From Geosiphon pyriformis uo1 (lineage: Eukaryota > Fungi > Glomeromycota), in the NCBI GenBank assembly GCA_016748015.1, contig JAAOMT010000664.1:194715-258714 (forward strand): a DNA stretch of 64,000 bases, given 5' to 3'. The position numbers and the translations under genes were made by a program. Each line of letters starts with the position of its first letter. Positions within the stretch are counted from its first letter, which is position 1. The notes under the pieces were generated by a model that made no database searches, had not been told where the DNA came from, and saw only the letters and a program-made list of their open reading frames with translations. Positions 24,523-59,100 of the stretch are shown here, one piece after another.

Positions 24523-25480
24523 TGTTACCAGTGGAATTTTAGCTATTAATTAGCATGAAATTATCTTCATAATTCTTATTATTAAGTAACATATTATTAT
24601 CATTTCGATTATTACTTATTAATTAGCCAATTTATCAAATATTATTACTCAATCAATAACTCGATTTGTACTATAAAAATTAAGATGCTCAAATTACACA
24701 ATATCCTGAACCATTTAATATAGTCAAAATTCGCCGAAATTAATGGAAAAATTGCCGAAATAATCAATAATTCGTAGAAATAACTTGTAGTTTGCCAAAA
24801 TGTATCTTTAGTTTACCCAAATTGTAGAAAAAAGAAAAGTGCAAGTTCAAAGACTAGTACTACAACAAGTTGTATAAAAAAAGAGCTTTTCTCTTCAAGA
24901 AAATGTATCTTTTCCATATTTTACCATAGTATTTTACTTTAGATATCTTAATTGAAACAAATTACTTTTTACAAAATCAAATAAAAATTAAATATTCAAA
25001 AACCAAATCCTCATAATTATTACACTTAAAATTCCCTTAAACACAACTAACATTTTGAAATTGATTAGCTACCAATTTCAATAAGCTGTTAGTGATTTCA
25101 GGCCTGAATAGAAAACGTTTCTCTTAATAAAATTCTATTTCTTTTACATTTCTTTTATTTTCTTATCATAATTATTAGGGTAGCCTATAGATGAGATTCC
25201 TGTAGAAGAGTTGACTTTCACAGCAAAATAACTATGCATTTTAGTGAGCTTCCAGATGAGCAATTCCTGAGAAAGAGTTGATGTTTACTACAACATAACT
25301 ATACAAAGTAACTGGCACAGAATTGGCCATTCCACTTATAAGCCCAGCAGTTCAAATTATAGGAAATAATTTGAAGATAAATTCAGTTATTGGAGGTTCA
25401 ACTACTTCTAGAAAACGTAAATTTACAACAAACAGACATTAACAACATTCAAAAAAAGAGACCAAAAACCTCCAGTAACA
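24523..25480 (+). repeat. Family B 5' LTR
   Basis: Direct repeat of 33420-34376; TG...CA termini. Confidence 0.95.
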
Positions 25481-25481
25481 T

Positions 25482-28400
25482 TTGGTGCTTTCTTATAGAA
25501 ATAACACAGCAACAACAAAATTCAAAGTGGTGAACACACCAGACACAACAACTCTAAAGTATTATCAGTCAATTTACATCCACTACAAGCAAAAATTCAA
25601 CATCTCAGACGGAATTGAAGTTATCAAGAAATCAGTATACCAATACATTGAAAACCACATCAACAATTATTTTTTTGGAAACTACAACATTTCAGAAGTG
25701 AGAAGCAATCTTTACAATAATTTAGTGCACTATTCACAATTGGGAACAGAAGACCTAAACAGTGAAACACTTGCTACCTACTTCCAAGAACTTAATTTTA
25801 ACATTATTGAGTATTGTGAAGAAAAATACCCAGTACAGTTCAAATACTCTTTTGACTTTGAATTAAAAACTAAACCAAGCAACAAAGACAAACAAAAAGT
25901 AAAACAATACTCAAAAACCACTCCAAACACTCCAATACTACCAAAGACAACTGCCAAACACTTGCAAACATCTGAACAAGGAACCAATATCAAATTACCA
26001 CTTTCTATTACACTATTTTTAATTTTACTTCCTCAACTACAAACACCAAATTCACCACTTAACTGTTTTTCCAGACCAGAAGATTATTAGTTACCTAGAA
26101 ATCCTATTCAACAGCAGAAACCCATATCAACAAGCACCAATATTATTGATTATTTACAAAAAATCGAAAGTAATCATTCAGAAAACTTGGAAAGTAAAAA
26201 AACTGAATCAAAACAAAAAGAAACCACAGAAAACGAAGAAGAAATGGCAACTGCTTATATTGCAAAGATTCCAGAATTCACTGGTGAAGACAATGATACC
26301 AGTCCTCAAAAATAGCTTGACAAAGTTCAAAAAACAGAAGATGCAAATGGTTGGAATGCAGCAAAAATGCTTAAAGCAATCTCATACTTTTTCCAAGGAA
26401 CTGTAGAAGAATGGTTTGAAAACTTAAGAGAACCATTTGAAAACTGGCAAGCATTCAAAGATGCTTTTCTCTAACAATTCACTGACAACAACACTTTTAT
26501 CACTCTCAGAAACTGCTTTTGCAATATCAAGCAAGAAACATTTAAAACTGTTATGACCTATCTTAGAAAATTCAACAAACTTCTCAGACAAATTCGACAA
26601 TTGGAAACCAATGACTACTATTCTAATGCTCAAATTCTGGATCAGTTTATAGCAGAGTTAAAAGACAAACTGATTAAAAAAGTCCACCCACATGTTCCAG
26701 CAGACTTAGCAACTACTATTAGATATGCAAAAAGCTATGAAATGGCAATGAAAGAAGCAAATCACACCAAGCTTGTAAATCTTGCAATTGGAGAAACCAG
26801 CTCAACAGCTGAAGAGAAGATAGACCAACTCACAAAGAAGGTTGAAAGCTATTTTACAAACCAACAACAACAGCAGCAATAACCACAAAGATATCAATCT
26901 TCACAATGATGCAATCAAAACAACTTTGGATCACCATCTAACAACCAATCTCAAATTTGTCATTATTGTAAAATTCCAGAACATTGGAAACAAAATTGCA
27001 AGAAATTACAAAAAAACCAACAAAACAAGAGTAATCAATGTTACTCTTCACCACAACAATCTTATTACCAACCTCCACTACTAACTTATTACTCACCAAG
27101 ACCACAAAATCAAAACAATTACTATTAACCAGCTCCACAACCAATGCAGCAACAATGTTAGCAACCTTTACCAATTCAGCAATATCAGACACCACTCATT
27201 CAACAATATCAAATACTAGCCAGAAGATTGGTTCAACATAACTAATTCACACCCCAAAATCAATTTCAAAATAACAACAACAGAATCAATCCAAATAACC
27301 AGTTGGTTTCTCAAAATTCTGGTCAGCAAAGACCCAATCACTATCACATTCAACTCAGTTATCTTACAATATCTGAAGGATCAGATTTTCAACAACCTGC
27401 ACTTTCTAAAAGTGAAGCTGCAGTACCAAGACAAAACTCTTTCAACAATACAATCTCACCAGCCAAATTGCTCAAAATGCCAACCTTTCAGATATATTTT
27501 CATTCGAATTTGAAGCAAATGAATCACCATTCTTGCTTAGAAATGCAGCAGCTAATGAACAAAAAGCTATCACTACTATGTACACTAAAGCTACAGTAGA
27601 AAGAAAACTCATCCAACTAATTCTAGACAGTAGATTAGCTGGAAGTATTATCACCTACCAGTTAATATAACAGCTTCAAAGAACTGTTGACAGACCAGCC
27701 CAAACTGTAATTGTTACAGCAGATGATATGAAAAAGACACCAATAAGAGAAATTGACAATTTTCCATTTACTATTGATGAAATTACCATTCCAGTCAAAG
27801 TTTTAGTTATGGATGCACCCCAATATTAAGCTCTGGTCGGAAATAATTGGCTTCTTAAAGCCAATGCAAACTTAGACTGGGAAACCCAGGAATTAAAAAT
27901 CTCATACCAAGGACAATACACCATAGTACTTGCTACTTGTGGAACTTTCAACAAACAATCAGAAAAAGCCCCAGTATTTGAATTTGAAGAGAAGAAAAAA
28001 ATGCCACTTATTAAAACTTACATGGCTCTTGGATCAACATTCAATTGGGCTGAGAAAACAGAACAAAATTTTTGAAGAATCAAGAAGATAGAAGAAAGTT
28101 AGATATTCCACACCAGAACCACGAAAAAAACCACCATACATTCCACTAAAATACAAAGATTGTAAAAAGAAGCTTTCTTTTATGAGAGCCTGTATTTTTC
28201 CAGAAGAAAAATATGAAACTTGTACCTGCTACTTTTGCAAAGCATGCCATAGAGAATGATTTAGATTCCCAAAAAGAAGTAGAAAATAGGATAACACACT
28301 TTGCTTCACATGTGAAGACATACTACCAGAAGAATACAACTGGATTGATATTGCAATAAGAGGAGAAGTATGTGATCAAATCTGTCAATATGCTCTATTA

Positions 28401-31137
28401 ATCTCAGAAAAAGTTAAAAGAGGAACACCATTTGATGCAGCATATAACAGTGCTCTCAACAAACTCTATTACTACCCTCATGATGCTAAAATGATCTTTG
28501 ACCTAGCAATGGCTTTAATTAATAGAGCCACACAAGAAAATGTCCACTAAATGAAAAAAGCTGAATATATTAAATATACAATGAAATTAGCTGGATTTGA
28601 TTATAAAGATAAAATAGAAACCTACCACCAAATTGCAAGCCACACATATTCAACCAAAGAAGTTCAAATTCAATGATTAGAGCAAATGAACATTCAATTA
28701 TGTAAAGAATGTGTTATGTCTTGCAATAACCAATGGTGTTTAGAATACTATGCTTTTAGCATTCCTCTGCCAGATGAAAATGAAATCGAATTTGGAGTAT
28801 TTGAATTAGTAGAAGAACTACCAACCACCCCTATCTACCTTTTTGAAAATCAATTACCCCTACAACTTAAATATTTCGACAACTATGGCCAAGGAATCAG
28901 ACCAGAAAAAGCACACAAAATTGATGCTGGATATAATCTAAGATATCCAGGAAAAGATACTTTAGTTCTTCAACCAAAATCTTTGACAAAAATCAATCTT
29001 AAAATTGCTCTTGAAATTCCACCTGGAGCAATGGTTCAAATTGCATCCAAATCATCATTGGCAAGCAAAGGAATCAATGTTAGAAAAGGAGTCATAGATG
29101 CAGGATATACTGGAGACATCACTATCATGTTGCAGAATGAAACAGACAAACCATTTAGGATTAAACATGTTGAAAAGATTGCCTAAGCAATTTATCTACC
29201 CTTAATCAACATTTCGGGTTTACAATCAGTAAACAACAGAAAACAATTGGAAAAAAATAAAAGAGGAACTCAAAATTTTGGTTTAACTGGACGATTTACA
29301 GTTCCAGTAAACATAGCTCTTAATACACAGAATGAATCACACCAGATTCTTCAACTTTTCCAACCAATTACCATTTCACTTTTTGGTGAATATCATGAAA
29401 TTTACACTTGCTCAAAACCCACCACTACCCAACAAATTTTTGAATTCAATGAACAAATCTGTCTAAAAAACGAAATCTTAATCCTAAACATTTATATTTT
29501 CAAAGGAATAAAAAAATTTTGACTCATATTCTACAATCCCAATAATTACCTTATTGTCTTAATAAACAAACTAAAAATTGGAATTATACACAGTAACATC
29601 TTTCAAGATAAAAACCCTTAAAGTGTCTCTAATTTCATCGAAATTGTAAAGCACACTTTACTTCCAAATCCAAATATCATTTCTACCACTGAAAACTACC
29701 ATCTTTTGGAAGAAAAACTCTCTTAAATTAACATGGGTCTCTTAGAACCTCAACAACAAAGACAATTGAAACAATTGATAGCTGAATTTGCAAATATATT
29801 TGCAAAAGACAACAATGACCTTGAGAAAACTGATATTGTTCAACATCAGATTCACACAGGAGATGCTCCACCAAAAAGACAACAAGCTTATCGAGTATTA
29901 CCTGCCAGCCATCAATTCATCAGGGAAAAAGTCCAAAAAATGCTCAATAATAGATTGATTCAACCATCAAGAAGTTCTTGGACCTTACCAATAGTTCTAG
30001 TTAAAAAGAAAAATGGAAAAATCAGATTTTGTGTTGACTACCAACAACTGAATAGTGTTACAATTGGAGATGCCTATCCTCTTCCAAGAATTGATAACAT
30101 GCTAAATGCTCTAGGAAAAGCCAAGTTCTTCTCAACTTTAGACTTGGAAAGTGGATACTGGCAAGTTGAAATAGATCCAAAAAATCGACCCAAAACAGCA
30201 TTTACCACTCAAGAAGGGAACTATAAGTTCAATGTTATGCTTTTTGGACTTTGCAATGCACTGGCAACATTCTAGCAACTCATAGATATTGTATATGAAT
30301 GACTTTTATGGCAATTAGTGGTTGTCTATATTGATGACACTGATGTATACTCACCAAGTTTTGAAGCTCATCTTATTTACCTGCGAGAAGTCTTTCAACA
30401 ATTATGAAAAGCAGGATTGAAGTTGAATATTAAGAAATATCACTTTGGAAACAAGTTTGATCTTTCTTGGACACATAGTTAGTAAAGATGAAGTCAAACC
30501 AAATCCAGAAACAATTAGTGCTGTCAAAAACTTTCAAACTCCCAGAAATACCACAGAACTGCGAGGATTTATAGGATTAGTCTTTTATTATCAAAAATTC
30601 ATAAAAGAATTCTCAGAAATTGCCAAATCACTCAATTATCTCACCAACAAAAATGTGTCATACAAATAGACAGAAAAACAACAAAATGCTTTTGAAACTC
30701 TCAAAACAAGATTAACAACAGCCCCAGTTCTTGCTTACCCAGACTTCAACAAATAGTTTTAATTAGCCACTGATGCTTTACATATAGTATTTGGTGCCAT
30801 TTTATCACAATTAGATGAAAATGACCAAGAACAAGTCATTGTCTATGCCAGCAGAACACTCAAACCACCAGAACTCAAATATGGCTCAACTGAATTGGAA
30901 GCCACTGCAGTTATCTGGGCTCTCAAACACTTTCAACAATACCTGAAAAATGGAAAAGAATTTGACATAATAACTGACAATATTGGCCTTAAATGGCTCA
31001 ATAAAAAGAAAACTGAACAAAGTGCCAAACAGTCTCAATGGAATGACTTCCTAGCAGACTACAGATATATTGTACACCACAAACCAGTAAAACTACACAC
31101 CAATGTTGATAGTCTTTCAAGAAAAAAACAAGAATAA
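25482..31137 (+). pseudogene. Family B gag-pro-dUTPase-RT-RNase H polyprotein
   Basis: Capsid-like IPEFTGEDNDTS at ~26270; knuckle CHYCKIPEHWKQNC ~26960; PR LILDS ~27617; dUTPase 28870-29290; RT (FCVDY, LDLESGYWQ, VYIDD) 29733-30440; RH ending DSLSRKKQE* at 31137; numerous stops and frameshifts. Confidence 0.9.
28870..29292 (+). pseudogene. dUTPase domain of family B pol
   Basis: Motifs DAGYNL, QIASKSSLA, GVIDAGYTG, EKIA*A, RGTQNFGLTG. Confidence 0.9.
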
Positions 31138-31194
31138 CACCAACAACAATTCCACCATAACTTACCAACCTACCAACAAAATAACCAAACAACA

Positions 31195-32579
31195 ATGGAT
31201 TTCAGAAACTACAACAATCTTAAAAACTATTTGGAGACTCTTACCATGCCAGAAAATTGGTCTTCAAGTAAAAAACATCGTTTACAACCCCAATCAAAGC
31301 AATATTTCATACATCACAACAAAATTTATTATAAAAATCACAAAAACCCAAACCAACCACTCAGATTAATACAAGAAAATAAAAAAGAAACAATTTTATA
31401 CAACATATACACAGATCCGTCTTCAGCACACTTGGGAAGAGATGGAACAATTCAAAGAACTCTTGAACATTATTTTTGGCCTCACATACAAAAAAACATT
31501 TGACAATATGTAGAATCTTGTAATATTTGTTAAAAAAAAGAAGGAACTCACTCCACAGAACCTTTAAATCCAATCAAAATTGGACAGTCTTTTGACAGAG
31601 TTGGAATTGATTTAGTCAAACCATTACCTATCACAACCCAAGGAAATCATTATATTGCAGTTGCAGTAGATTATTTTACCAAATAGCCAGAAGCTAGAGT
31701 CATCCAAAAAGCAGATGCAAAATTAGTAACAAATTTCATATATGAAGACATTATTTATAGACATGGATGTCCAATTGAACTCTTATTAGATCAAGAAACA
31801 CATTTTGTGAACAACCTAATACAAGAAATTTGTGAACAATTTAATGTCAAAAGACCTCTATCATTATCTTATTACCCTCAAACAAATAGACTTGTAGAAC
31901 ATTTCAACAGAACATTGTGTGAATCTTTAGCCAAAGTTTTAACAAATTTTGAGCAGGAATAGAATATCTTTATTCCATCAGTGTTACTAGCATACAGAAC
32001 ACTAAAACAAGATACTATAAAACACATACTATTTGATCTTACTTATGGAAGGACAGCAATATTACCAGTTAATTTCACAGTAGAAACATATCCAATGCAA
32101 CCAATCAATGAAAAAAACTTCCAAGAAACACTCCAAAAAAGAGCCTACACTATTCTTAGCACATTAGAAGAAAAGAAACACATAACAGCCATTCATATTG
32201 AATACTCCCAAGCTCTACAAAAAGAAAGACATGACAACAAACTGCCACCAGTTATCAATAAATTTAAGATTGGAAATAAAGTTTTTTTACACAGAACTAA
32301 GACTGAAAAACAATAGAATAGAAATTTGAACATAAATGGGATAGACTATTTTATATCCATGAAATTTTAGGCAATAGATTATACAAGTTAAGACTTGATG
32401 ACAAAGTACTAGTAAAAGTTGTATATAGAGATAGATTGAAACACTATTTTTTCAGAAACAATCCTGAACCATTAATTCTACAAATTGGTACACATTCCCT
32501 TTTAGTTAATCCTGAAAATATTCTTCAAAATTTAGAACCAATAGTTATAATAAAACAACAACCAAACTTGAACACTTAA
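31195..32579 (+). pseudogene. Family B integrase (separate ORF)
   Basis: ATG 31195 MDFRNYNNLKNYL; HHCC remnant (AHLG..CNIC); core GIDLV, DQETHF, LVEHFNRT; GPY/F-like tail; no chromodomain; stop at 32577-32579. Confidence 0.85.
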
Positions 32580-32731
32580 TTTAATATTTATAATAATCTT
32601 TTGAAAAATATAGACAAAATATAAAACAAAAATAGTAAATGATCACAAGAAACATTCAAACCCAAAAACAAAAACCCTATACCCAAAAATAATTTTCTTT
32701 ATTCTTTTCTTTATTAGCTAGTCATTTTATC

Positions 32732-33385
32732 ATGATTATTTTCCGAAATATTCAACAAATATCCCAAAAATTAATGTTAGCCTTGAAAACACTTTCTGAC
32801 TTATCCATAACGATTAATGAAAGTCAAATTAATTACATTCAGAAAAAAACCACAGTCCCAGTAGTAAATAATGCTCAGAACTATCACTCCTATAGAAGAA
32901 AAACAAGAAGTCACTCTGAAAATAGGTTACCAGAACTTTTGAAGCAAGTATTGAAAGAAAATCTTTTAATTGTCCCTATTGACATTCCACCAAATGCCAC
33001 ATTGCAACAAAAACTTCTACTATTTCTCAATGAACAGAACAATGAATATACCTTTATATATAGATATTTTCATATTGAAAAAACACTTTATGAACGAAAA
33101 CTAGAACTTGAAGCAACCAACATCACTCCTGAGACTGTACAAAAACAAATTCACAATGAATTTAAGGCAGCAGCTAGACCAACAAACACTTGCTACAAAC
33201 TTAGAGCAGCTTTTAGACTTTATGATTTGTTCAACACTTGTAAAAATGTCCTACAAAATCCAATACTGCAACCAATAAAAGTTCAATACATTGGCAAACT
33301 CACAGAACTGAAATTTCAACAATTTTCAGACCAAATTACTTCAATTATTCTGGACCACTATCTTGACATCACAGATAGTACTTAG
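32732..33385 (+). CDS. Family B accessory ORF3 (217 aa, unknown function)
   Basis: Uninterrupted ORF between IN and the PPT; same position and similar size as family A ORF3. Confidence 0.7.
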   Translation: MIIFRNIQQISQKLMLALKTLSDLSITINESQINYIQKKTTVPVVNNAQNYHSYRRKTRSHSENRLPELLKQVLKENLLIVPIDIPPNATLQQKLLLFLNEQNNEYTFIYRYFHIEKTLYERKLELEATNITPETVQKQIHNEFKAAARPTNTCYKLRAAFRLYDLFNTCKNVLQNPILQPIKVQYIGKLTELKFQQFSDQITSIILDHYLDITDST

Positions 33386-33419
33386 ACTTCAATGGAGCTC
33401 AGTCTTGAAGAGGAAATTA

Positions 33420-34376
33420 TGTTACCAGTAGAATTTTAGCTATTAATTAGCATGAAATTATCTTTATAATTCTTATTATTAAGTAACATATTATTATCAT
33501 TTCGATTATCACTTATTAATTAGCCAAATTATCAAATATTATTACTCAATCAATAACCCGATTTGTACTATAGAAATTAAGATGATCAAATTACACAATA
33601 CCCTGAACCATTTAATATAGTCAAAATTTGCCGAAATTAATGGAAAAATTGCCGAAATAATCAATAATTCGTAGAAATAACTTGTAATTTGCCAAAATGT
33701 ATCTTTAGTTTACCCAAATTGTAGAAAAAAAAAAGTGCAAGTTCAAAGACTAGTACTACAACAAGTTGTATAAAAGAAGAGCTTTTCTTTTCAAGAAAAT
33801 GTATCCTTTTCATATCTTACCATAGTATTTTACTTTAAATATCTTAATTGAAACAAATTACTTTTTACAAAATTAAATAAAAATTAAATATTCAAAAACC
33901 AAATCCTCATAATTATTACACTTGAAATTCCCTCAAACACAACTAACATTTTGAAATTGATTAGCTACCAATTTCAATAAGCTGTTAGTGATTCCAGGCC
34001 TGAATAGAAAACGTTTCTCTTAATAAAATTCTATTTTTTTTACATTTCTTTTATTTTTTTATCATAATCATTAGGGTAGTCTACAGACGAGATTCTTGTA
34101 AAAGAGTTGACTTTCACAGCAAAGTAACTACACATTTTAGTAAACTTCTAGACGAGCAATTCCTGGAAAAGAGTTGACATCTACTACAACATAACTATAC
34201 AAAGTAACTGGTATGAAATTGGCTATTCCACTTATAAGCCCAACAGTTCAAATTATAGAAAATAATTTGAAGATAAATTTAGTTATTGGAGGTTCAACTA
34301 CTTCTAGAAAACGTGAATTTACAACAAACAGACATTAACAACATTCAAGAAAAGAGACCAAAAACCTCTGGTAACA
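33420..34376 (+). repeat. Family B 3' LTR
   Basis: Direct repeat of 24523-25480, preceded by the PPT and followed by the TSD. Confidence 0.95.
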
Positions 34377-34520: not shown

Positions 34521-35176
34521 ATGAATAATTATTTCTGGATCAAAACATTCAAAACACCTTTTATACTCTTCATAAGTATTGGATCAAAAACTATTCAAAT
34601 GTTACTCTGACCATTGAAAAACAAACCACCATAACTGATAACAGTGGAACACATACTCTTATTAGACCAAAGAAAACTACTACCAAAAGAGAAAAAATTG
34701 GTAGTAAAATGAATAAATATCTGTTAGAAAGTATAACAGCAGCTATACTCTCACCTTCTAACATAATTGGAAAAACACTCTAAGAAATCTTACCTATAGA
34801 CAAAAACTTGTCATATAGAAGGCAATTAGAACTCTATAGTCATCTTGGTGAAATCATAGAGAATATGAAACTCATGAAGAAAACAACTTCAAAAATATAG
34901 ACAGAAATTTTGGACATTATATGGCTAGATGTCCCAAGAGTTTTAACTATTGCTAAAAGACCCAAAATTCTAATACAAAGATTTGGTCTCTTGGATACAA
35001 AACTTATTTCACCTCATGTGTTATATATCTTATCCACAAAAAACTTCAACAAACTAGTTAGCTTTAAGTTAGATAAAACCTTTCAAATAAATTACTCCAT
35101 AAATAGCTTGATTTTGCTAGAGCTTAATCTCTTTGGAGAGAATGATGTTATAGTTGAAACTTATATTTCTTATTAA
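34521..35176 (+). pseudogene. Family A ORF3, decayed copy
   Basis: Homologous to 5736-6392, with a frameshift and stops. Confidence 0.8.
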
Positions 35177-35774: not shown

Positions 35775-37969
35775 GTACTATTAAAATGACTATTGGTAAT
35801 AAAATTTTTTTAACTACTCTTAAGATTGCACAATCTTCTAATATGGCCTCTGTTTTTTTTCATCTTTTTTTAGTTATACTTCATGATGTATCTTTGGATA
35901 CTTCTTCTAATGACATTAAAACTGCTTTTGGAATTTTTGGTGTTGTCACTTTAATTAAGTTAAAGTCTGCTAGCTTGTAATAATATACTGTAATTTACTT
36001 TAAAAACATTTTTTTTGCTGCTGCTGCTTTTACTTACTGGTCTGTGCTAGTTAGAAAAGATAGTGTTATGGTTGAAACCCATAATTTTTATTAGTTATCA
36101 CATGTATTAGTTACTGATGTCATATAATTAGCCACTTTATTTTTAGATAGTGATTATTGACCTGATCAATGACCTGACTATTGACCTGATCATTGACCTG
36201 ATTATTGACCTGATCATTGACCTAATTGTTGACCTGATCATTGACCACTTTCAATAGCTATATAAGCAATGAGTCTTTTAGCTGTAGAAAATCATCTCTC
36301 AGACAAGACAATCAAAGAAATAAAATAACAAACTTCCATCTCAAACATTCTCTTATCGCTAATTTCTTTTTTCCTATCTTCAAGTATCTGAACATCTTTT
36401 GAATAAAAGATTACTTGTTGGCACTTTTCTGAAATGTGTAATTGCAGTATTTGAAGATTATTTGAATAAACATGACTGAAGAGCACAAGTTGATATCTGA
36501 TATTGAATTCTAAGAGTGCCGATGTGAAGGCATAGAATTAATACTAGCGGTGATCAATTGTTGACAGTATAGACTATTCCTCTACCTTCAGATTCCCCAG
36601 TTACCTTTGAAAAGAATAGCGACTGAGATATTTTATAAGACTAATCTTGCACATTGAATCCATACTTATTCAATTCACTCATTGAAGTTGAATCCTCTTT
36701 GATTATTTCCATCTCCCTACAATCCTGTTTTCTCTTGCTATCTGTTAGCTTGTTACTCCAACCCGTAACAATAGTGTCAAAATTTTTCTATTGTTAACTA
36801 AAAAGAAGTTATTACTTTAAAAAATGTTTTTTAAAGCTAAATTAATTAATTTTTTTTTTGGTTGTACTGTCTTTAAGATTAGTAATTTGGTCTTTTAAGT
36901 TAATGGCTGCACATATTTCAATTTTTGCTCCCTTAAATTATATTAATGTCAATGCTTTGCTATAGTTACTTTTGATTTCTTGGAATCTTTGAACAATGCT
37001 GTATCAAAAACTAGTATCTTGTATAACTATTATATCTGATAAAAAACTTCTGAATATTACTATTGCTATAGATATTAAGACTTAAATTATTTGGCTGTAA
37101 ACTGCAAGATGTTGTTATCTCTTTTTTTCAAATTCTTTTTCAATTCTGCTAGTGGTCTTAAAATGTTTAAATCATTATTTGTTAGAGCTAAATCTTATAC
37201 CAAAGCTGCTGCCTTTGTAGTTTTTTTTATTGCTGCTGCTGCTAATATGAATTTAACTCTTGGTGCCTCTTCAAAGCTATAACACTTATGTTGTCTGTTG
37301 CTTTTTCTGTTCCAAATACTGCTGTTAAATCTAAGTTGGCTTTTTTGAAATTTTATCTTAGTAAACTATCTCTGTTAATAAAATCTATAGTCAAACTTGT
37401 CAACTTTTTGATTATACTAATTACCAAACTGCTGTTTATTTTACCTACTACAGATGTAACAATAAAAAAAAGTATAATTAAAATGACAAAACAAATCAAA
37501 GCTATTGAAGCTGTGGCTTTCATGTTGCAAAGAAAAATGGTAAACCTGAAAAAAAAGTATAAATAAGTCTGCTTAAAAGATGTATCTAATAATAATAATA
37601 TGGATGATGATAATAATAATAATAATAAAGATTTTTTAATCTGTAATAACATTTTTGATAGTATAATAGAATTATAGAAAGATTAATTCTTTGGTATTAA
37701 ATCTGATTCTAATCAGATTGTTAAGTAGATAAGTAGTCTTGTTAAGAATAGTTATAAGCTTGTTAACATTATGAATAAAATATATGAATTAGATATGTTT
37801 ATACATTAAGTAACATAGATAATATTAGTGTATAGTTAAGGCTTTCTGTTTGTAGTTAGCCATATTTTGTGATTTTTGTATTATTAGGTGAGCTGGCTTT
37901 ATAAAAATGCCACAATTTTGTGAACAAAACTAATAAATAACTAGTATGGCTACACATTAACAAAAAAAA
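35775..37969 (+). mobile_element. ORF1-only poly(A) retroposon, copy 5 (old, 5' part missing), interrupted by a solo LTR
   Basis: Heavily A/T-shifted homolog of the family ORF; 3' UTR ends GGCTACACATTAAC plus A8 at 37962-37969. Confidence 0.82.
36064..36770 (+). repeat. Family A solo LTR with 4-bp TSD ATAG
   Basis: TGTTA...TAACA flanked by ATAG at 36060-36063 and 36771-36774; the retroposon ORF resumes on the far side. Confidence 0.93.
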
Positions 37970-40243: not shown

Positions 40244-41874
40244 TTTTTTTTTTTTTTTTTTTACATTTTACGAATGAGATCCAAACACTACTTAAAGCTA
40301 CACATCAAAGAAATGATCTATACTAGACATGAATCATGTATTGTCTACACATGACCAGCTACTCGGGCCAATCAGAACAACACTACTCAGATATACGAAC
40401 TGAAACTAAACTGCCTACACCAGAAAAAAACAAACATGGTTTACGAAAACCGAAACAAATGTCCACAGCCTCAGTGATATCAAGCAGCTTGACAACACCA
40501 GCAAAAAACCCCGAAACCAGACCAGAGACTGAAACAGGTGTTGAACTATCCAATGGAATCAACTTGGCCTTTTTCATGTAAGCATAATGCTTAGCACAAA
40601 CTATCCAAACACCATCCCTAAAGGCAAGACCAAGAGAGCACACAAACTTAACCACCTCCAATTCTGTAATTTTGGGGTCACGGAACACAGAAACAGCCTC
40701 GTGAAACCAATCATTAAACACAAAACCCTTGCATAGAGCCACAAACACAGGGAAATCAGAAGCACAAGATGACAAAAGCTGCATTACAACCGATGAGAAG
40801 AGTGACAAACCAGTAAGAGCCTTCCAAAAAGCCACGTGAGAATCCAATATCTGACTACGAGCAGAATCGTCAATTTTACAAAAAAACACATGGTCCGAAG
40901 ACTCCACATCACCACAATATAAACACAGCACACTAGGGTAATATTTATTATAAAGACGCTTCCTTACAGCAACAGGTAACCAGTAATGCAGAGCCTTCAT
41001 GAAATAGGTATGAGCATTAGCTAAGGGCCTGCTAGTGAAGCTGGTGGCCATGTGCGAGTCAGGATGCCAGACTATAGAAGAGCAAAACCAGTCAACATTA
41101 AAAAGCAAATCATCCTTCAAAAACCTAGCACTAGAACCAACTTCCCAGCGTGCGCGACAAATTGATTGGTAGATATCACGAACAAAGTGTCTCAAATTGC
41201 CTGAAACCACACCACCATCAGCCACCAGAAAATGTTCATCCAAGCGAGAACGCAGACGCCAACTGGAAAGAGAGACAATGCCAGCAATTTTATCAGCACG
41301 CTCATTACTAGAAACGCCAGAGTGACCTTTGACCTTGTGCCAACTAACTCTCAAATTTTTACTACGAATAATATTAGCAATATGCTGACGTTCAACCCAA
41401 CACTGATTGTGAAAGTCAGAACACACAAGATCTATTTCTGACTTACAAGCACTCAAAGCAGACTGACTATCAGAAAACATGCGAACGGAACAGGACAAAG
41501 GGACACACTCCATGGCCAATGCAATAGTCTGCAATTCTGCAAGGATGAATGACATCAAGCCTGATACACCAACCCCCAAACCCAAATCAATGTCCTCGAA
41601 AAAAGCAGTAGCACCAGCTCTACAGCCAGCAGTACCCAAACTTCTCAAAGATCCATCCGTGTAAACAGACAAGCTACCAGAAATGACTTGAGAAAGATGA
41701 CCACAAACAGAAGCATAATCAGCAGAACCAAAAATATCTTGATAAACAGCACCATCTGAGACAAACTGATCATTAGAAAGGAGAGAAGCATCATTGAGAA
41801 ACGCAGTAGCAAGCTTGAATCATTCCGGAACAGGACCATGGGGGTCCAGCCTCTTCCACCACTTGAAGGTATAC
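40244..41874 (-). mobile_element. 5'-truncated, relatively young LINE (ORF2 C-terminus, 3' UTR, poly(A)) with ~12-bp TSD
   Basis: T-run at 40244-40262; TSD TAAAAGTTTTTT at 40238-40249 and 41875-41886; higher GC and retained CpGs. Confidence 0.9.
40383..41872 (-). pseudogene. LINE ORF2 C-terminal fragment: RNase H and CCHC zinc finger
   Basis: VYTDGS, AELQ, FSDSQ, VKGHSG..NERAD (RNase HI catalytic motifs); CLYCGDVESSDHVFFC; 429 open codons. Confidence 0.9.
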
Positions 41875-42573: not shown

Positions 42574-42978
42574 NNNNNNNNNNNNNNNNNNNNNNNNNNN
42601 NNNNNNNNNNNNNNNNNNNNNNNNNNNNNNNNNNNNNNNNNNNNNNNNNNNNNNNNNNNNNNNNNNNNNNNNNNNNNNNNNNNNNNNNNNNNNNNNNNNN
42701 NNNNNNNNNNNNNNNNNNNNNNNNNNNNNNNNNNNNNNNNNNNNNNNNNNNNNNNNNNNNNNNNNNNNNNNNNNNNNNNNNNNNNNNNNNNNNNNNNNNN
42801 NNNNNNNNNNNNNNNNNNNNNNNNNNNNNNNNNNNNNNNNNNNNNNNNNNNNNNNNNNNNNNNNNNNNNNNNNNNNNNNNNNNNNNNNNNNNNNNNNNNN
42901 NNNNNNNNNNNNNNNNNNNNNNNNNNNNNNNNNNNNNNNNNNNNNNNNNNNNNNNNNNNNNNNNNNNNNNNNNNNNNN
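42574..42978. other. Assembly gap (N run) between two head-to-head family A LTRs
   Basis: Run of N. Confidence 1.
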
Positions 42979-43588
42979 TATTTTTAGATAGTGATCGTTG
43001 ACCTAATCAATGACCTGACTGTTGACTTGATCATTGACCTGATTATTGACCTGGTCATTGACCACTTTAGATAGCTATATAAGCGATGATTCCCTTAGCT
43101 GTAGAATAACATGATCAAAGTAACGAAATAAAACAATATCAATTACTTCCTTTCATATCACTTATTTCCCTTTCCTTACCTTCAAGTATCTACTTGTTGG
43201 CATTTACATACCTTATCTTTTCCCCTTCTTGATTTGTATTTGTTAGAATTAGTCTGAGAAGCAATTGGCTTGCTCTTGTAATTCATTGAATAAAGAAACA
43301 ATTGAAAAGTACAACAATACCTGTTATTGATTCTAAGAATCACTGAGTTGAGGCATAGAATAATAGTAGCGGTGTTATCTTGTTGACAATCACAGACTAT
43401 TCCTTTATCTTCAAATTTAAGAAAAGATTAGCGACTGTGATTTTTATGAGACTGATCATGCACATTGAATTCCTACTTATTCAATTTGCTCCCTTATTGT
43501 AATTCCCTCTTTGTTTATTTTCATCACCATACAATACTGTTCTTCTTTACTATCTGTTAGCTTGTTACTCCAACCCATAACATAAAAG

Positions 43589-43605
43589 TGGTGCTCTCTG
43601 TGAGG
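43589..43605 (+). promoter_or_regulatory. Primer binding site, family A
   Basis: TGGTGCTCTCTGTGAGG, 6 nt after the LTR end. Confidence 0.85.
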
Positions 43606-43634: not shown

Positions 43635-45185
43635 ATGGATGATTACTCATATCTGCCACAGCAATCAGAAGAACACTTTGCAGCACACAACAGAAACAAT
43701 CTAAATTTCATTGAACTTAATCTTCTGCTCTCCTGCTTGATCTGTTTCCCCCTTGAAGAACAATCCAGTAGACAATTCCAAGACTTTTGGAACTAGTTTC
43801 TGAACAAGCATTCAGCTGAAACCTACACAGCTTATACAACCTATTACTTTGACCAAGCTTATTTTGAAAACAACTTTGAAGAAAGAAACAACAATATTAA
43901 TCAACTCTTATATTCTGCAATCTTTGAACAACAGCCTCCTGATTTCGAATATCTGAATCATCAAATCCACATTTGGATTGCTGCCCATCAAGCAACTGAA
44001 ACTCCCTTTGAAACAGAAGAAGAAAGTTACCAAACTGCCCCTGTTTTTGACCTTTTATTAAGTGAATCAGACTCGTCTACACAAACAGTTACCCCTGAAC
44101 CAATGGCTAATGACCCCATGCAAGCAAACATTCTGGCTGTTCTCCAAGGTATACAAACTGCTTTAGGAAGAAGAAACAATACTCCACTACTACTATTTAG
44201 AGGTGATGTACAAGATTCAATTAAATGGTTAGATGATTTTGAGAGAGCTGCCACAGCCAACCAGTATAATAAAAAATACAAGTTCCAAATCATTGGTGGC
44301 TACCTTCAAGGCTCTTCTGCTACCTGGTTCTCACAAGAAACAGATGCCAATGCTCAAAACAGAATAATCAGATGGACACCAATCAATGCTGGAGAAGAAA
44401 ATACCTCTTTCACTACCCAATTTGAGGCCAAGTTCAGAACCCCAATATTAATATCCAAATGGCACATGGAATTGGAAAGAAAAACCCAAGGTCTTGGAGA
44501 AGTAGTGACTGAATATGCCAAGACTATTAGAAAGCTAATCAAATGTGTAGACTTTGGGAGAAATTGGACAAAAGAGCAGAAAATTCACTCCTTCACAAAA
44601 GAATTGAGAACTGATTTATCATATGCTCTTTGGCCCCTCCTGGCCCTGAAAGATAACCCCACCATGGATATGGCCATTGAATTAGCACAAAGAATTGAAG
44701 ATAACCAAAGGATGCACTTGGGATCCACACTACTAGTTTTTGCTCCTGCTCCTGTCATGGCTCCTGCCCCTCAAATGGCTGCTACTTCTTTTGCCACTCA
44801 CATTCAAGATCCAAATGAACAGTTAATAGACAGACTCACAGCAAATCTTGCCTGGTTATTAGAACCCTTAGCCCAAGCAGTCAGAGAAAATTAACAACCA
44901 CAAAGACCCAGATTTGAACCACGTTTCAATCAGCCCCAGCAACCATCTTATCAAAGACAACAAAATTGTGGCCCACCTGTATGCTATTGCTGTGGATTAA
45001 CTGGACACTTTTCAAGAGATTGCAACAATCCTCCACTGCCTCCACCAGTTCTCAGAAACAATGATGCTCAGAACAACAGACCCAACAACAACAATGTGCC
45101 CAACCAAAAACCCAATCATGCCAACATCAATTTCTTTGGAGAGGATTCCCTAGTTGAAGCCACTGTTTATCAGCCTTTAAACTGA
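43635..45185 (+). pseudogene. Family A gag
   Basis: ATG 43635 (MDDYSYLPQQ) to TGA 45183-45185 in one frame with two premature stops; capsid-like FRGDVQD..WLDDFERAA; knuckle CYCCGLTGHFSRDC. Confidence 0.85.
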
Positions 45186-45214: not shown

Positions 45215-47871
45215 AGCCAACCAGAAGAAAACCCTTTTTATGCTTTTAACTTAACTGATGATGATCATGACATAGATAAACTAGCAATCAACCCCTCTGA
45301 ATCCACAAGAAAGAAGAAAAAAGCCAAAGTTGATTTTGTTCTGAACCCCAATAAAGCTTTTATATCAACTGTTGACAACAATGAGCCCCCAAAAGCCAAA
45401 GTTTTCAAAAACCCTCCAAAGTTGGAACTCCCAGAAATAGTACAAAAATCCGGCCCTTATTCTGTTGTCAAAGACCTCATGGAAACCCCAGCACATATAA
45501 CCTTTGGCCAATTGATGACCCATCCACAATTCAGAAAAGATCTTTACAAATCTTTGATTCCAAAGAAAAAGACACCCAAAACCAACAAACACCCTTGCCA
45601 AGCTGGACTTGCTGACAATAGCAATGTCACTCCTCTAATTTGTAAAGCCCAAGTGGCTGGCTACTTCATCAATTTGATCCTAGACAGTGGATTATCTGTT
45701 AGTGTTATTGTCAAATACTTTCTTGAAGCAATTGGCAGAAAAATTGATGAACCATCTATACAACCAATGACCAATATGCATGATGATAAGAAAAAAGAGC
45801 TTGGCATAACCAAAGCTATTCCTGTCTGCATCAATGGCATCAGCATTGAAACTGATATAGAAGTATCTGAAGCAAAAAAATACACCATTATTGTTGGCAA
45901 TAAATGGCTCAAGAAAGCAAAAGCTTTGCTTGATTATGAACTCTATGAACTAACCATCAGATGTGGTAAGAAACCCATTGTGATTAAATGTCGCCATTGG
46001 ACAACTCCCCCAGTACCCAAGCAGAGCCCAGAAGAAAATGAATTAGACAAATCAGATGATGAAAAAAGTGAGGAAGAAAAAAAACAAAAAGAACAAGAAG
46101 AAACTGCTGAACTCGCCTATACCATCTTTACCAGCAATGACAAACCACTGGATAATGTCAAGGCAGATAAAGAAGAAATCATTGTCAATGACAAGCTAAT
46201 CTGCTGGCTTTATTATAACATGCTCAGAAGAACCTTTAACAGAAAGCCAGGCAAGAAAGCCAAATACAGTTATTGGTGGCATGGTCCTTGTGCCCGGTGC
46301 TGGTGCGACAAACCATTGTATTCTCCTAGCAATGAATACATGTCCTGCCTAATCTATTACAAAGATTGGGAACCAATCAGCTTAATACTCCGTGAGGAAA
46401 TAAAAAAAGTCCAAAAGTTCTTTAAAAACGAACCACCTGAAATCCAATCACTGGTTGTAGAACAAAGAGAACCCTCTCCAGAAGAAAGAAAGATAGACAT
46501 TGAAAACCTGCTGGCTAGAAACAGCCCAGTTGTCTCAAAAGAAAATGAACCTCCTGGACATACACATGTGATACAATACACCATTATCACCAGAGAAACT
46601 TGCCCCATCTATTTGAAGCTCTATTAATCCAACTGGCACAATGGTGAGTTTATCAAAAAAAAGAAATAACCCGAATGAAAACCCTTGGATTCATACAGGA
46701 AACCAAAAGTGAATGGGCATTCCCAGTTGTAGTGGTATCCAAGAAAAAAGGAACCCTACGCTTTTGTGTTGACTATCACCAATTAAATGCCATTATTGAA
46801 AGAGACATGTACCCACTTCTTAAGATTGATGCAATGCTAAACCAATTCCATGGTGCTGCTTTTTTCTTAACCATTAACTTAACTGCTGAATTTTGGCAAG
46901 TAGAGATGAATTCAGAAAGCAGAAAGAAAACTGTCTTCATCACCAAGTATGGCACCTACAAATTCACAGTCATGCTTTTTGGTCTCACAAATGCTCCTCC
47001 CACTTTTCAATGCTTAATGGACAAAGTATTTGAATCAGTGAAAGAAAACTTTGTTCTAGTCTACTTGAATGACATAATGATATACTCAAAAACCTGGAAT
47101 GAACATCTTGAACATTTGCAAAAGGTTTTTGACCTCCTTAGAAATGCTGGCCTTAAGATCAATCCAATCAAATCATTCTTTGGACGTCAATCCACTCAGT
47201 TCCTTGGTCATCTTATTACAAAAGATAGAATCTTCCCTGATCCAGCCAAAATTGAAAAAGTTCAAAACATTAGACAACCAATGAATTTTCATGAACTACG
47301 CTCTTTTCTTGGTTTGGCCTCTTATTATCGCAAGTTTGTTAAGAATTTCTCCAAAATTGCCACTCCTCTCAATCAGCTACTTAGGAAAAACATCAATTAT
47401 CATTGGGGCACTCATCAACAAAAAGCATTTGAAATTCTGAAAGAAAAACTGGTTACAGAACCCATCCTCATGCAACCTAATCTGGATCAACCTTTTATCC
47501 TCTATACTGATACATCTGGCTATGGACTTGGTGCTGTTCTTTCCCAGAAAGACGAAGATGGCAGGGAACATGCCGTAGCATATGCCAGTAGAACTCTCAC
47601 ACCAGCAGAAAGGAACTACTCAGTCACAGAGCAAGAATGCTTAGCAGTAGTTTGGGCTACCAGTTACTGGGACAAATATCTTAAAGATGTAAAATTTTTG
47701 GTGGTAACAGATCATCAAGCTTTGGTTTAGCTATGCAACAAAAAAAACCTGGAACATAAACGGATAACTCGCTAAATACTTTACTTGGATGAATTCGACT
47801 ATGACATTCAACACTGCAAAAGAGCTAATCATCAAAACGCCGACGCTCTCTCCAGACTTACCATCCAGTAA
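45176..47871 (+). pseudogene. Family A pro-RT-RNase H
   Basis: PR LILDSG; RT FCVDY, FGLTNAPPTFQ, VYLND; RH TDTSGYGLG, EQECLA, VTDH, ADALSR; ends TAA TAG at 47869-47874. Confidence 0.9.
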
Positions 47872-47936
47872 TAGCAAAACTCTCTCAAACCAAACCCACT
47901 TAATTATTTGTAACTTCCCCACAAACAAACACGATA

Positions 47937-49250
47937 ATGGATTTGGACAATTACTCTGCCTTAATGGAATTTTTGGGTAAAGGACAATACCCGCCAGACT
48001 ATACTTAACAGCAAAGAGAACATTTGCGCAAACAATCAAATTTCTATTTGATTCACCAGAACCAATTATATAAAAGAAATAGAAAAAATCTTGACTGCCC
48101 CCAGAGAGTCATTAGATTTGAAGAAAGAGAAATTGTGATCTACAATATGCACACTGATCCATTAGCTAGACACTTTGGAAAAACAAAAATGATTCAGAAA
48201 ACTTTAGCTCGCTATTATTGGCCTATCTTGGAAAAAGACATTGCTGAATACATCAAAACCTGTGATACCTGCCAAAAAAGAGAAAAACCCAATCGCAAGG
48301 AAGATATCCATCCAATCTCTGTTGGTTAATCATTTAACAGAATTGGTATAGATGTTGTTGGACCTTTAACAGTAACTCCTGATGGCAACAGATACATTAT
48401 TACAGCTACCAACTATCTTACAAAGTGGGTAAAAGCAAGAGCCACCCCAGATTAAACAGCAGTCTCAATTGCCAATTTCATTTATGAAAATATCATTTGT
48501 CGCCATGGCTGTCCCAAAGAACTTTTATCTAACAGAGGAAGAGCTTTTCTCAGTACACTGGTTGAAGAACTTTGCAGAAAAATGGGAATACGTCATAAAC
48601 TCTCTTCCCTTTATCACCTCCAAACAAATGGCCTAGTAGAACATTTCAATAGAACACTATGTGAAACCCTAGCCAAAACCAGTGAAGAAACCAACTTATG
48701 GGACAAAGTATTGCTTTCAGCTTTGTTCGCCTACAGAACTGTGAATCATGACATAACAAGTTATGAACCCTTTTATCTGCTTTATGGACAAATAGCAACT
48801 TTACCAATAGAAATGGATATAGAAACAATACCTTTTGAAGAAATAACAATAGGAGATTACAAGGACATTTTGCAAAAAAGACTTGGTACTATTCTTGATT
48901 TATTGGTAAAAACACAAATAATTGCCTTTGAAAAAATAAAACAGTTCTAAGAGAAGCTCAAAAAGAAAAAGACCTATAAAACACTTTTCTTAAGTGTTAG
49001 TGACTTAGTTTTGGAATACCATTCAGACAGAGACAATGTCTATGGTAATAAATTCTCCAGCCACTGGAAAAGATTTTTTATAGTCAACAAAGTTTTGAAC
49101 AATGGTTCATATATCTTACAAGATCAATATGGAACAATATTCAGTGATTGTCCTGTTTATGGCACACGATTCAAGAAATATTACAAACGACCTAATTGGT
49201 TACCTGTTGTGGTAATACCAACCCAAATAATCAGCAAAAATCAGATATAA
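47937..49250 (+). pseudogene. Family A integrase (separate ORF)
   Basis: ATG 47937 MDLDNYSALMEFL; HHCC (HTDPLARH..CDTC); core IDVVG, GLVEHFNRT; GPY/F-like tail; no chromodomain. Confidence 0.87.
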
Positions 49251-49291
49251 ATAAATGCACTATTTCCAAAACAAAGGTATCTTTAATCGAC

Positions 49292-49948
49292 ATGAACAAT
49301 TATTTCCTAGATCAAAACATTCAAAATGCTTTCTATACTCTCCATGAGTACTGGATTAAGAACTATCCAAATGCTACTCTGACTATTGGAAAACAAACCA
49401 CCATAACAGACAACAGTGGAACTCACACTGTTATCAGACTAAAGAAAACAACTACCAGAAGAAAAAGAATTGGTGGCAAAATGGATAAATACCTACTGGA
49501 AGGCATAACAGCAGCGATACTTTCATCTTCCAGCACAATTGGAAAAATAATACAAGAAATCTTGCCCATAGACAAAAACTTGTCATATGGAAGACAACTA
49601 GAACTCTATGGTTGTCTTGGTGAAATTATAGAAGACATGAAGCTCATGAAGAAAACAACTTCAGAGATACAAGGGGAAATTTTGGGCATTATACGATTGG
49701 ATGTCCCAAGAGTTTTGACCATTGCTAGAAGAGCCAGAACTTTTATACAAAGATTTGGTCTCTTGGATACAAAACTTATTTCACCTCAAGTATTATATAC
49801 CCTATCCACAAAAAACTTCAACAAACTAGTTAGTTTTGAGTTAGACAAAACCCTTCACATAGACTATTCCATAAATAGCTTGATTTTGTCAGAGCTCAAT
49901 CTCTTTGGAGAGAATGATGTTATGATTGAAACTCATAGTTTTTATTAG
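49292..49948 (+). CDS. Family A accessory ORF3 (218 aa)
   Basis: Uninterrupted from ATG 49292; stop lies 30 nt inside the 3' LTR. Confidence 0.75.
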   Translation: MNNYFLDQNIQNAFYTLHEYWIKNYPNATLTIGKQTTITDNSGTHTVIRLKKTTTRRKRIGGKMDKYLLEGITAAILSSSSTIGKIIQEILPIDKNLSYGRQLELYGCLGEIIEDMKLMKKTTSEIQGEILGIIRLDVPRVLTIARRARTFIQRFGLLDTKLISPQVLYTLSTKNFNKLVSFELDKTLHIDYSINSLILSELNLFGENDVMIETHSFY

Positions 49949-50583
49949 TTATCACATGTATTAGCCACTGATATCATATAATTAGCCACCCTATTTTTAG
50001 ATAGTGATCATTGATCTGATCAATGACCTGACTGTTGACTTGATCAATGACCTGATCGTTGACCACTTTAGATAGCTATATAAGTGATGATTCCCTTAGC
50101 TGTAGAATAACATGATCAAAGTAACGAAATAAAACAATATCAATTACTTCCTCTCATATCACTTATTTCCCTTTCTTTACCTTCAAGTATCTACTTGTTG
50201 GCATTTACATACCTTATTTTTTCTCCTTTTTGATTTGTATTTGTTAGAATTAGCCTGAGAAGCAATTGGCTTGCTCTTGTAATTCATTGAATAAAGAAAC
50301 GATTGAAAAGTACAACAATACCTGTTATTGATTCTAAGAATTGCCAAGTTGAGGCATAGAATAATAGCAGCAGTGTTATCTTGTTGACAATCATGGACTA
50401 TTTTTCTACCTTCAGATTTAAGAAAAGATTAGCAACTGTGATTTTTATGAAACTAATCACACACATTGAATTCCTACTTATTTAATTCGCTCCCTTATTG
50501 TAATTCCCTTTTTGTTTATTTCCATCACCATACAATACTGTTCTTCCTTGCTATCCATTAGCTTGTTACTCTAACCCGTAACA
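49918..50583 (+). repeat. Family A 3' LTR of copy 3
   Basis: Direct repeat of 42979-43582. Confidence 0.93.
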
Positions 50584-50729
50584 ATGTATTTATTCATTTT
50601 ATTATTAGTTTTTTTTCTAATATTTTTTTTTAATTAAAAAATAATATGTGTTTTATAATTATTAGTTATAATAGTTAAGATAATATTTAAATAGTTTTTG
50701 GTTTAATATTTATGCATTTAATGAGTAAA

Positions 50730-57539: not shown

Positions 57540-59100
57540 AAATTAACAAGAAAAAGATTTATTATGTATTTGGTTTAATACTTATAAAAAATTTAAAAAA
57601 CATTTTAAATATTTTAATTTAAAAATTATTATTTATATTAATTAAGGATATTTTTGTTTTAAAAATAATATATTTATTTATAATTAATTTTTATTGAATT
57701 TTAAAATTGATATTATAATAATAAATAACCAATTAAATTATATATAATAAACAAATTAATTATTAAAAATTGTATTATATTAATCTTGTAAAATATAAAA
57801 ACTATTATTTAAACTTTTTTTAATTATAAATAGTCTTTTTTATTAATTAAAAAACTTATAAATATAAATATTATTTTCGTTTAAACAGTATTTTAAGCTT
57901 AATTAAAAAAATATACAGAGTAAATAATATTAGTTTTAATTAAGTATTTATTTAAAACTTAAATTTAAAATTGTTTACTAAATTAATTTTTAACAAATTA
58001 AACAGAAAAACAAAAAATTAAATTCATTAAAATTTAGATTATTTTTATTGTTTATTACAAAGTAGTTTTTAATTGTTATAATAATAAATAGATAAAATTT
58101 GATAATTTTATAAAAAATACCACTTTTATATTATAAATTTAAGTAATAAGCTAACAAATAATAAGAAAAAAAATAATTAAAAATGATAATTACAAAAAAA
58201 ATTTAATAAAAAAATTTGAAAATAATAAAATAATTTATAATTGTTAATAAAATAATATTACTGTTATTATTCTATGTTTTACTTTAATAATTTTTAGAAT
58301 TAATAATAGAAATTATCATATTTTTTTATTTAATAAATTACAAAAACAAACAAATAAATTTTAAGTTAATTCTAATAAGAAAAAAAATAATATAAATACT
58401 AATATATAATTTTTTATTTATAAATATTTAAATACTTGAAAATAAAAAATTGGAAAAAAAATATAAAAAATAAATAAATTATGTGTTTATTGTATTTAAT
58501 ATTTAGATTTTATGTTTTTTTATAATTAAAACATTTATTATATATATATTTATTAAAAAAGATTAATAATTAAATTAATAAATAAGTTAATTGCCAAATT
58601 ATTTATCAGATCAATAATTATTATTTAAGTAATTATATTATATTGTTAAAGTTTTTTTAAAAAATAATTATAATAAAAATAAAAATAGTAAAATAAAAAT
58701 TTTTTAACTTGTTTTAACTCTTTGTATATATAATTGTTTTAATATTAAATAAGTATTAGCTTAGTTAAACAACTACTTGTTTTTATTTTTTGTAAATTGT
58801 AGCTTATTTAGTTTTTTGGTTTAATAAATAAAAACTGTATTTTTGTTTTTAAACTTACTTTTAAATCAATTTTTATAAATTAAATTTTACTATAAACCAT
58901 TATAAACAATTTTCATGACTTGTTTATTTAATTTCAATTATTTGATATTAATACTTGGTTTGATATTGTTAAGCAGTAAGTTAAAAAATTACTTGTTATT
59001 TATTTTTTTTGCTTTTCATTAAAAACACAAGTATAAAAATAATTCTCTTAATAGCAGAAATAAAGAAAATGGAAGTAATGATAATGTTACCATTTTGAGT
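57540..59100. other. Extremely AT-rich non-coding tract between the TE nest and the host gene
   Basis: Almost no G/C, no ORFs; probably a terminally decayed repeat. Confidence 0.6.

Follow-up and report, generated by a model that had tools for sequence, protein, structure and literature searches.

Extra ORFs behind pol are known in LTR retrotransposons, but most of their functions are not, and in the sections of the review that treat them the examples of sense ORFs between pol and the 3' LTR (aORF-3S) are env-like, some of them transmembrane, while the candidates for regulators are antisense, such as gene23 of maize Grande, which is nuclear and has its own promoter (PMC7264820). The bdelloid rotifer elements Juno, Vesta and TelKA, as portrayed in the part of their description drawn on here, are of the Ty3/gypsy type, with a dUTPase between PR and RT and a non-env ORF3 (PMC5408684). 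Outside retrotransposons, the foamy virus protein Tas (Bel1) is presented in the relevant portions of two papers as a 3' accessory product that binds both the LTR promoter and an internal promoter (PMC4929722, PMC8670036).

Here, we describe an ORF at a comparable place in retroelements of the fungus Geosiphon pyriformis, whose genome consists of LTR sequence to 41.2%, a figure taken from the accessible part of PMC11952901. The DNA analysed, hereafter the window, is a stretch of 64,000 nucleotides. Like the reviewed aORF-3S, ORF3 lies on the sense strand between pol and the 3' LTR, occurs in many copies and is conserved like the core genes; unlike them, it codes for a soluble protein, extends over the PPT into the LTR and matches none of the examples in the reviewed sections (PMC7264820). 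ORF3 forms a new family among the sense additional ORFs located behind pol, a class already known. The window's element B resembles the rotifer elements in having a dUTPase before RT and a non-env ORF3, but the rotifer ORF3s are GDSL esterases, DEDDy nucleases or transmembrane proteins, none of which the Geosiphon ORF3 matches, and the part of that description drawn on here mentions no separate integrase ORF, unlike what is seen in Geosiphon (PMC5408684). With foamy virus Tas, ORF3 has in common that it is a 3' accessory gene and that binding of the LTR or an internal promoter is the model proposed for it below; the two differ in that neither sequence nor fold matches and that ORF3 resides in a fungus, in an element without env. 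By analogy, ORF3 may work like Tas without belonging to the Env, Tas, Nef, TAV or ParB families. A literature search, mostly in openly accessible texts without their supplements, returned nothing on ORF3, nor on integrase as an ORF of its own in elements of this lineage.

Elements carrying ORF3

Retroelements lie nested within each other in the window, whose A and B elements are on the + strand. In A3, the visible part of the 5' LTR (42979..43582, its start hidden in an N gap at 42574-42978) is followed by gag (44103..45185), with a zinc knuckle and one internal stop, by a broken protease, RT and RNase H region (45479..47871) and by an integrase in a separate ORF with its own ATG (47937..49250); two stops fall in RT-RH and four in IN. 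The 3' LTR (TGTTA...TAACA, 49918..50583) is 93% identical to the visible 5' part. A1 is an internally deleted copy that has lost PR-RT-RH and most of IN, with gag fused to the end of IN at about 5316. Element B (24523..34376) is nested in the integrase end of A2; its LTRs (24523-25480 and 33420-34376) are 94.6% identical, its dUTPase (28686-29186) lies ahead of RT and its integrase (from 31195) is again a separate ORF. A 4-bp target duplication flanks B as well as a solo A LTR (36064..36770), and for A3 this site is hidden by the N gap.

Among solved structures, the A3 RT is nearest to the Ty3 RT (E 1e-64), followed by a caulimovirus-type enzyme (E 1e-38) and by retroviral RTs (E 1e-22 to 1e-25). 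The genes are ordered gag, PR, RT, RH, IN between TG...CA LTRs, with a PPT present. Judging from the E values of the RT match and from this gene order, we class the carriers as Ty3/gypsy-type LTR retrotransposons. The primer-binding sites at 43583-43605 and 25479-25497 start with TGGTGC a few bases past the LTR and presumably resemble the end of elongator tRNA-Met. A dUTPase domain occurs in element C (15239-15613, minus strand) as it does in B, and none was reported among the A3 ORFs scanned.

ORF3 at the edge of the 3' LTR

An earlier note on this DNA had described 218-aa ORFs at 49292-49948 in A3 and 5736-6392 in A1, and a 217-aa ORF at 32732-33385 in B, as a gene overlapping the PPT and the 3' LTR. 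All three are present with these lengths, and the motifs quoted from them occur in the translations. The overlap is equally clear, since the A3 and A1 frames both run through the purine tract and stop 31 bases into the LTR. In A3 the PPT (49907..49917) is contained in ORF3, the LTR begins directly after it at 49918 and the stop codon is at 49946-49948; in A1, whose ORF3 is 86% identical to that of A3, the LTR begins at 6362 and the stop codon is at 6390-6392. Although ORF3 is indeed open in A1 and A3, a fourth copy had been overlooked in A2 (34521..35176, LTR from 35146), which is broken by a frameshift near its start and by two stops, so that two of the four copies are open.

In B, the frame (32732..33439) is interrupted by a premature TAG at 33383-33385 and, this codon aside, reaches the family stop at 33437-33439, the 3' LTR having begun at 33420. 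The motif preceding the TAG is found in 83 of the 120 B relatives listed (the best 120 of 209), and at the position of the TAG these have Trp in 72 cases, the end of the protein in nine and another residue in two. Because Trp predominates to this extent, we read the TAG as a decay product that has replaced a Trp codon, as had been surmised. The likeness between the tails ELSLEEEIML and ELNLFGEDDVM, to which the earlier note had also pointed, follows in part from the purine tract and the TGTTA of the LTR, and for this reason the tail was kept out of our homology test.

Selection on ORF3 and decay of its copies

For the window's three A copies, the dN/dS of ORF3 is 0.22-0.38 in all three pairs under three transition weightings, a range close to that of RT/RH (0.24-0.42) and of the IN core (0.22-0.35) in the same copies, while the five other reading frames of the A ORF3 give 0.54-1.52. 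Fisher tests for selection gave P values of 2e-5 and 2e-7, and the synonymous share of 0.51, compared with 0.31-0.32 under neutrality, was reached in none of 1200 neutral runs with four mutation spectra. The evolution of ORF3 is therefore not neutral, and in family A, the one family for which dN/dS was computed (B is present as one copy), ORF3 is under purifying selection at the level of RT and integrase. ORF3 is a genuine, selected gene that extends across the PPT/LTR edge.

The open state of ORF3 beside a broken pol, on which the earlier note had placed weight, is no more than expected by chance. A single transition turns only 10 ORF3 codons into a stop, compared with 25-27 codons in RT-RH and IN, and neutral simulations leave ORF3 open in 20-49% of runs (P 0.20-0.49), so that the open frame is uninformative. 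Of the database copies, 65 begin at the first Met of the family, in a search that admitted only proteins of 119-382 aa; 20 of these are 218 aa long and many end at 134, 165 or 188 aa, where the early ends fall at CGA/CAA codons. Domestication of ORF3 by the host was rejected, since copies lose their frame at such codons and two of the four window copies are broken. Selection would have operated during replication of the element, and copies, once inserted, would decay neutrally.

Relatives and spread

The A protein gave 130 matches and the B protein 209, and the best 120 of each are all hypothetical proteins of Geosiphon pyriformis, one of which is 99% identical to the B ORF3 product; the best 120 of 265 matches in a final homologue search are all B-type. 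Hundreds of ORF3s are annotated as host hypothetical proteins, which bears on gene counts. A profile of 69 B proteins retrieved 35 clusters among 1.84 billion representatives, and of the seven examined five hold Geosiphon models, including two further families, and two hold full-length proteins from ENA and JGI. The full-length relatives outside the Geosiphon records are P0268 and P0270. A metagenome scan for ORF3 relatives found one locus, and none were found in the viral contigs or plasmids searched.

The JGI relative sits on a metagenome contig (L001) that carries RT-RH, IN, ORF3, a purine tract and TGTTAC in that order. This contig has the same layout at about 30% ORF3 identity, so that both the gene and its extension over the LTR border have been retained across elements with ORF3s as diverged as this. 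Within the L001 integrase, an in-frame TGA occurs at 1564-1566 where Trp is expected, and the L001 ORF3 is intact.

In several gene models (P0004, P0019 with six members, P0028, P0031 and P0034), ORF3 is cut shortly after the LTR border and spliced to the 12-bp array described below, which gives the protein an IIDL-repeat tail (6369-6442 and 49925-49999 in the window). The GT...AG pair for such a splice exists in A1, and in A3 the GT is altered. These models may be an artefact of gene prediction or a genuine second isoform.

Kinship of the A and B proteins

The earlier note had taken the A and B proteins for relatives, and here the two kinds of comparison diverge. Standard methods gave no significant result: BLASTP has an E value of 0.7; hhalign, with profiles that are shallow (Neff 1.35 for A), has P values of 0.32 and 0.02 and probabilities of 0.2% and 2.3%; local HMM scores have a median of 2.2 bits, below the 2.8 bits of reversed A proteins; pairwise global z values are 0.5-3.9; and the 35 matches of the B profile contain no A protein. 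This is what would be expected if two unrelated genes had been captured independently at one place, with a shared pattern made of helical periodicity and composition.

End-to-end profile scoring was chosen because the position and the length of ORF3 match between A and B, and this purpose-built test, from which the PPT-encoded tail was omitted, argues for common origin. The A-B score of 43.6 exceeds the maximum of 28.2 in 500 column shuffles (0/500), none of 60 block shuffles reached it, and five other gap settings gave z values of 4.3-6.6. The 25 full-length A proteins, which are close kin and worth about one observation, all scored 28.7-67.1, compared with at most 28.2 for their reversals, and above every control, that is 51 from other proteins of the window (at most 27.4) and 200 bacterial proteins (at most 11.0). 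Not only do the two ORF3s have the same length and the same place in the element, but the predicted structures of A and the B clade also have the same order of helix, beta-hairpin, basic loop and helices, and in view of these results we consider independent capture quite unlikely. The A and B ORF3s are very probably homologous, short of proof, and likely descend from one gene carried along with the element. In RT-RH, IN and ORF3 alike, B shares more identity with L001 than with A (54 vs 42%, 55 vs 40% and 30 vs 23%, respectively). When both cores are aligned to a third family, DUF3102, the A and B C-termini fall in the register that the earlier note had given them.

Topology and predicted fold

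The highest 19-residue hydropathy is 0.93-1.43 in all seven ORF3 proteins tested, so the expectation that they have no transmembrane segment was borne out, no such stretch or anchor being found in any of the seven; by eye, the N-termini are polar. Their non-env nature is likewise upheld, as no match to an Env or structural protein was found. An env-like or structural protein, serving cell-to-cell spread or the building of particles, would nevertheless suit the location, since ORF3 occupies the place of env, and two comparisons lean that way, namely a closterovirus coat cluster in the ESM Atlas (0.93) and a filamentous virus capsid in a VIA structure search (Z 3.8, rmsd 3.2, 67 aligned). Proteins of 218-245 aa with 0-2 cysteines, no hydrophobic segment and no viral fold at E<=0.001 make this a most improbable role.

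No significant match to Pfam, NCBIfam or PHROGs was obtained for the ORF3 proteins, and a Pfam scan of 41 A and 69 B proteins at E<=1 contained no Tas, Nef or caulimovirus TAV family (among the best 25 families for B). DUF1016_N matched 12 of the 69 B proteins, with a best E value of 0.0028 and, in the one score printed, 12.9 bits against a cut-off of 32.8; DUF3102 and HTH_ParB are absent from the Pfam matches listed. FtsQ for B proteins (E 5e-4 to 0.05), beta-lactamase and aIF-2beta for A, and SNaCT12 were dropped, each being confined to one family and far under the cut-off.

The model of the B clade, built from 49 sequences, has a mean pLDDT of 78.4 and reaches 85-96 over residues 81-200, a helical domain, whereas the A model is poor (pLDDT 43.5). 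The predicted fold consists of an N-terminal helix and beta-hairpin, a basic loop, which A ORF3 also has, and a core of five to six helices. Foldseek against the PDB and viral models gave nothing at E<=0.001, and neither it nor a second VIA structure search, which had no significant match, returned an env, Tas or TAV fold; a wide VIA search had no match, to a viral fusion protein or otherwise, with Z>=5 (best 4.6). The N-terminal helix-hairpin had no match in fold searches that bore little on that part, and a homodimer prediction, in which the alignment was not used, scored 0.02.

Below significance, the core shows a weak likeness to ParB/Spo0J/KorB, DUF3102, DUF1016_N and DUF6192 in fold, profile and language-model searches. 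In the VIA search, model residues 78-207 align to Spo0J (1vz0; Z 3.8, rmsd 5.3, 87 aligned), and matches were also seen to KorB (1r71; Z 3.2, rmsd 5.2, 97 aligned) and ParB (6s6h; Z 3.2, rmsd 3.1, 59 aligned), the ParB-family rows ranking 12, 36 and 37 among 50. We take DUF1016_N, DUF3102 and DUF6192 to resemble ParB-type helix-turn-helix domains. Home-made profiles were built from at most 51 of 76 DUF1016 sequences, 25 of 26 DUF3102 loci and five ParB, with DUF1016_N and DUF3102 chosen after hints or from recall and the core limits set by hand. With these, DUF3102 aligns to both the A and the B-clade core in a common register (P 0.003 and 0.044), as it does to ParB (P 4e-4), for which no register is implied. 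In end-to-end scoring, nine and three of 400 shuffles match the two cores against DUF3102, a low-powered test in which the DUF3102-vs-ParB and DUF1016 positive controls are themselves weak, and three of 400 match the B-clade core against DUF1016_N. Against the ParB profile itself, neither core beats shuffles or reversed cores, and in an enrichment test reversed profiles also partly favour these helical families. ORF3 also differs from the ParB family in having no CTPase or nuclease domain. The ESM Atlas gave DUF6192 and PF01818 clusters for both the A and the B-clade core. Taken together, the likeness to a ParB/DUF3102-type helix-turn-helix is a weak convergent lead rather than an assignment. 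The Atlas clusters nearest to the B-clade core come from Mucoromycota (0.95 and 0.94; 176 and 167 of 256 features); they carry no Pfam family and, compared by Atlas score alone, are a lead that the ORF3 domain may spread wider in these fungi.

Integrase cistron and expression of ORF3

In Ty3/gypsy elements, integrase is usually part of a single Pol. A stop codon closes RNase H and integrase has a start of its own in all five Geosiphon and metagenome elements examined, which come from four families: A3 (spacer at 47869-47936), A2 (23268-23335, with a decayed integrase start), B (31135-31195), C (about 10930-10870, minus strand) and L001 (772-799). Relative to RNase H, the integrase frame is the same in B and L001 and shifted in A and C. 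Four spacers were counted; they measure 24-65 bases, are A/C-rich with 0-5% G and contain no ATG, and that of A3, which follows the RNase H stop and is 65 bases long, is also unstructured. The spacers between IN and ORF3 are A/T-rich and 40-316 bases long, with an upstream ATG in four of five copies, and a TATA-like word stands 45-126 bases ahead of the ORF3 start in all five, with a chance P of 0.16-0.54 each. In A3 (49246..49291), the IN stop (49248-49250) falls within the word TATAAAT and is followed by 41 bases of spacer, in which an ATG at 49255 is out of frame. From this arrangement we infer that integrase would be expressed by restart or internal entry and ORF3 from a separate short transcript, for which this A3 region is a weak candidate as an internal promoter. 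A conserved splice acceptor before ORF3 was also considered and is not general: B has a pyrimidine tract with AG, and L001 is without a nearby AG.

A separate integrase in five of five elements calls for a special mechanism, and it is conceivable that ORF3 acts on RNA in a TAV-like manner, in reinitiation, translation control or packaging of the polycistronic RNA. The basic loop of A would suit such a role, as would the Atlas clusters of a RegA-type translation repressor (PF01818, 0.90-0.91), which point to RNA and were found for both cores, and that of the closterovirus coat. Nevertheless, these closterovirus and repressor neighbours share few features (122-151 of 256), the 110 proteins scanned at E<=1 have no caulimovirus Pfam match, nothing links ORF3 to the spacer, and RH-IN spacers as short and unstructured as these could permit unaided restart. 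We therefore regard an RNA role as unlikely, and the structural hints weakly favour DNA binding over reinitiation.

LTR repeat arrays and the proposed role of ORF3

A candidate target for a DNA-binding ORF3 protein is a 12-bp repeat array in the A3 LTR (50005..50064), just before a TATA-like box at 50077. The array is longest in the solo A LTR (36154-36246), where it has seven matches to the best 9-mer, precedes TATATAA at 36259 and was equalled in none of 40 shuffles. The values for A3 (4/40) and L001 (3/40) are marginal, and the repeat arrays of the B LTRs are within chance (32/40 and 34/40). A clear LTR array is thus present in family A only, and the idea that every family has its own array was not confirmed by the shuffles.

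Our tentative reading, a possible one, is that ORF3 codes for a DNA-binding regulator of the element's own LTR. As far as structure prediction goes, the protein likely binds DNA through its helix-turn-helix core. It would be made from its own short transcript, started at an internal promoter behind integrase, enter the nucleus through the basic loop and bind short repeats in U3, which in A would be the 12-bp array preceding the TATA box. Bound there, it would raise full-length transcription and so close a feedback loop like that of Tas in foamy viruses. Against an activator speaks the fact that no acidic activation domain is evident besides the PPT-encoded tail, and ORF3 may repress instead. 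The earlier note had seen in ORF3 a nucleic-acid-binding transactivator, reinitiation factor or anti-silencing protein, by comparison with nef, tas/bel and TAV; the selected non-env accessory ORF on which this view was built is supported, the role is inferred, and kinship with those genes found no match.

The same weak helix-turn-helix hints would also suit a DNA or chromatin binder with another job, which shields the element from methylation and silencing or tethers the integration complex. Differences within LTR pairs are nearly all transitions (40/41 and 50/52) and those of A2 are mainly C/G-to-T/A, a pattern that would fit methylation pressure, while a tether would agree with the insertion of B in another element and with integrase pieces in which the scan reported no chromodomain. 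However, Pfam, NCBIfam, PHROGs and the fold searches gave no enzymatic or chromatin-reader match, and we hold either job to be rather unlikely.

Returning to the regulator of the LTR, it is doubtful, though conceivable, that a fungal Ty3/gypsy lineage has independently reached the design of complex retroviruses, with a separate integrase cistron and a ParB-like HTH transactivator that co-evolves with an LTR array. If so, ORF3 would be a sequence-specific transcription factor encoded by an LTR retrotransposon, which could partly account for the LTR expansion in Geosiphon; an activator or anti-silencing factor supplied by the element itself would be a mechanism by which such growth in LTR content could occur. 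ORF3 is a compact, soluble and selected family whose diverged members each lie beside their own LTR, so that cognate and non-cognate pairs are directly testable. Besides ORF3, the lineage is unusual in having a separate integrase cistron.

Other features of the window

Further traces of A-type elements are seen at 50584-50717 and 57566-57839 (both minus strand), which are badly decayed and A/T-shifted remnants of ORF3 or of the IN-ORF3 junction, the first of which was apparently the insertion site of A3. Repeated pieces of another high-copy retroelement-like family lie at 2195-4561, 6894-10686, 12785-15198 and 40383-41555, with an RNase H domain in one ORF. At 60037-61377 (minus strand), a piece of a host gene with a RhoGAP domain is found.
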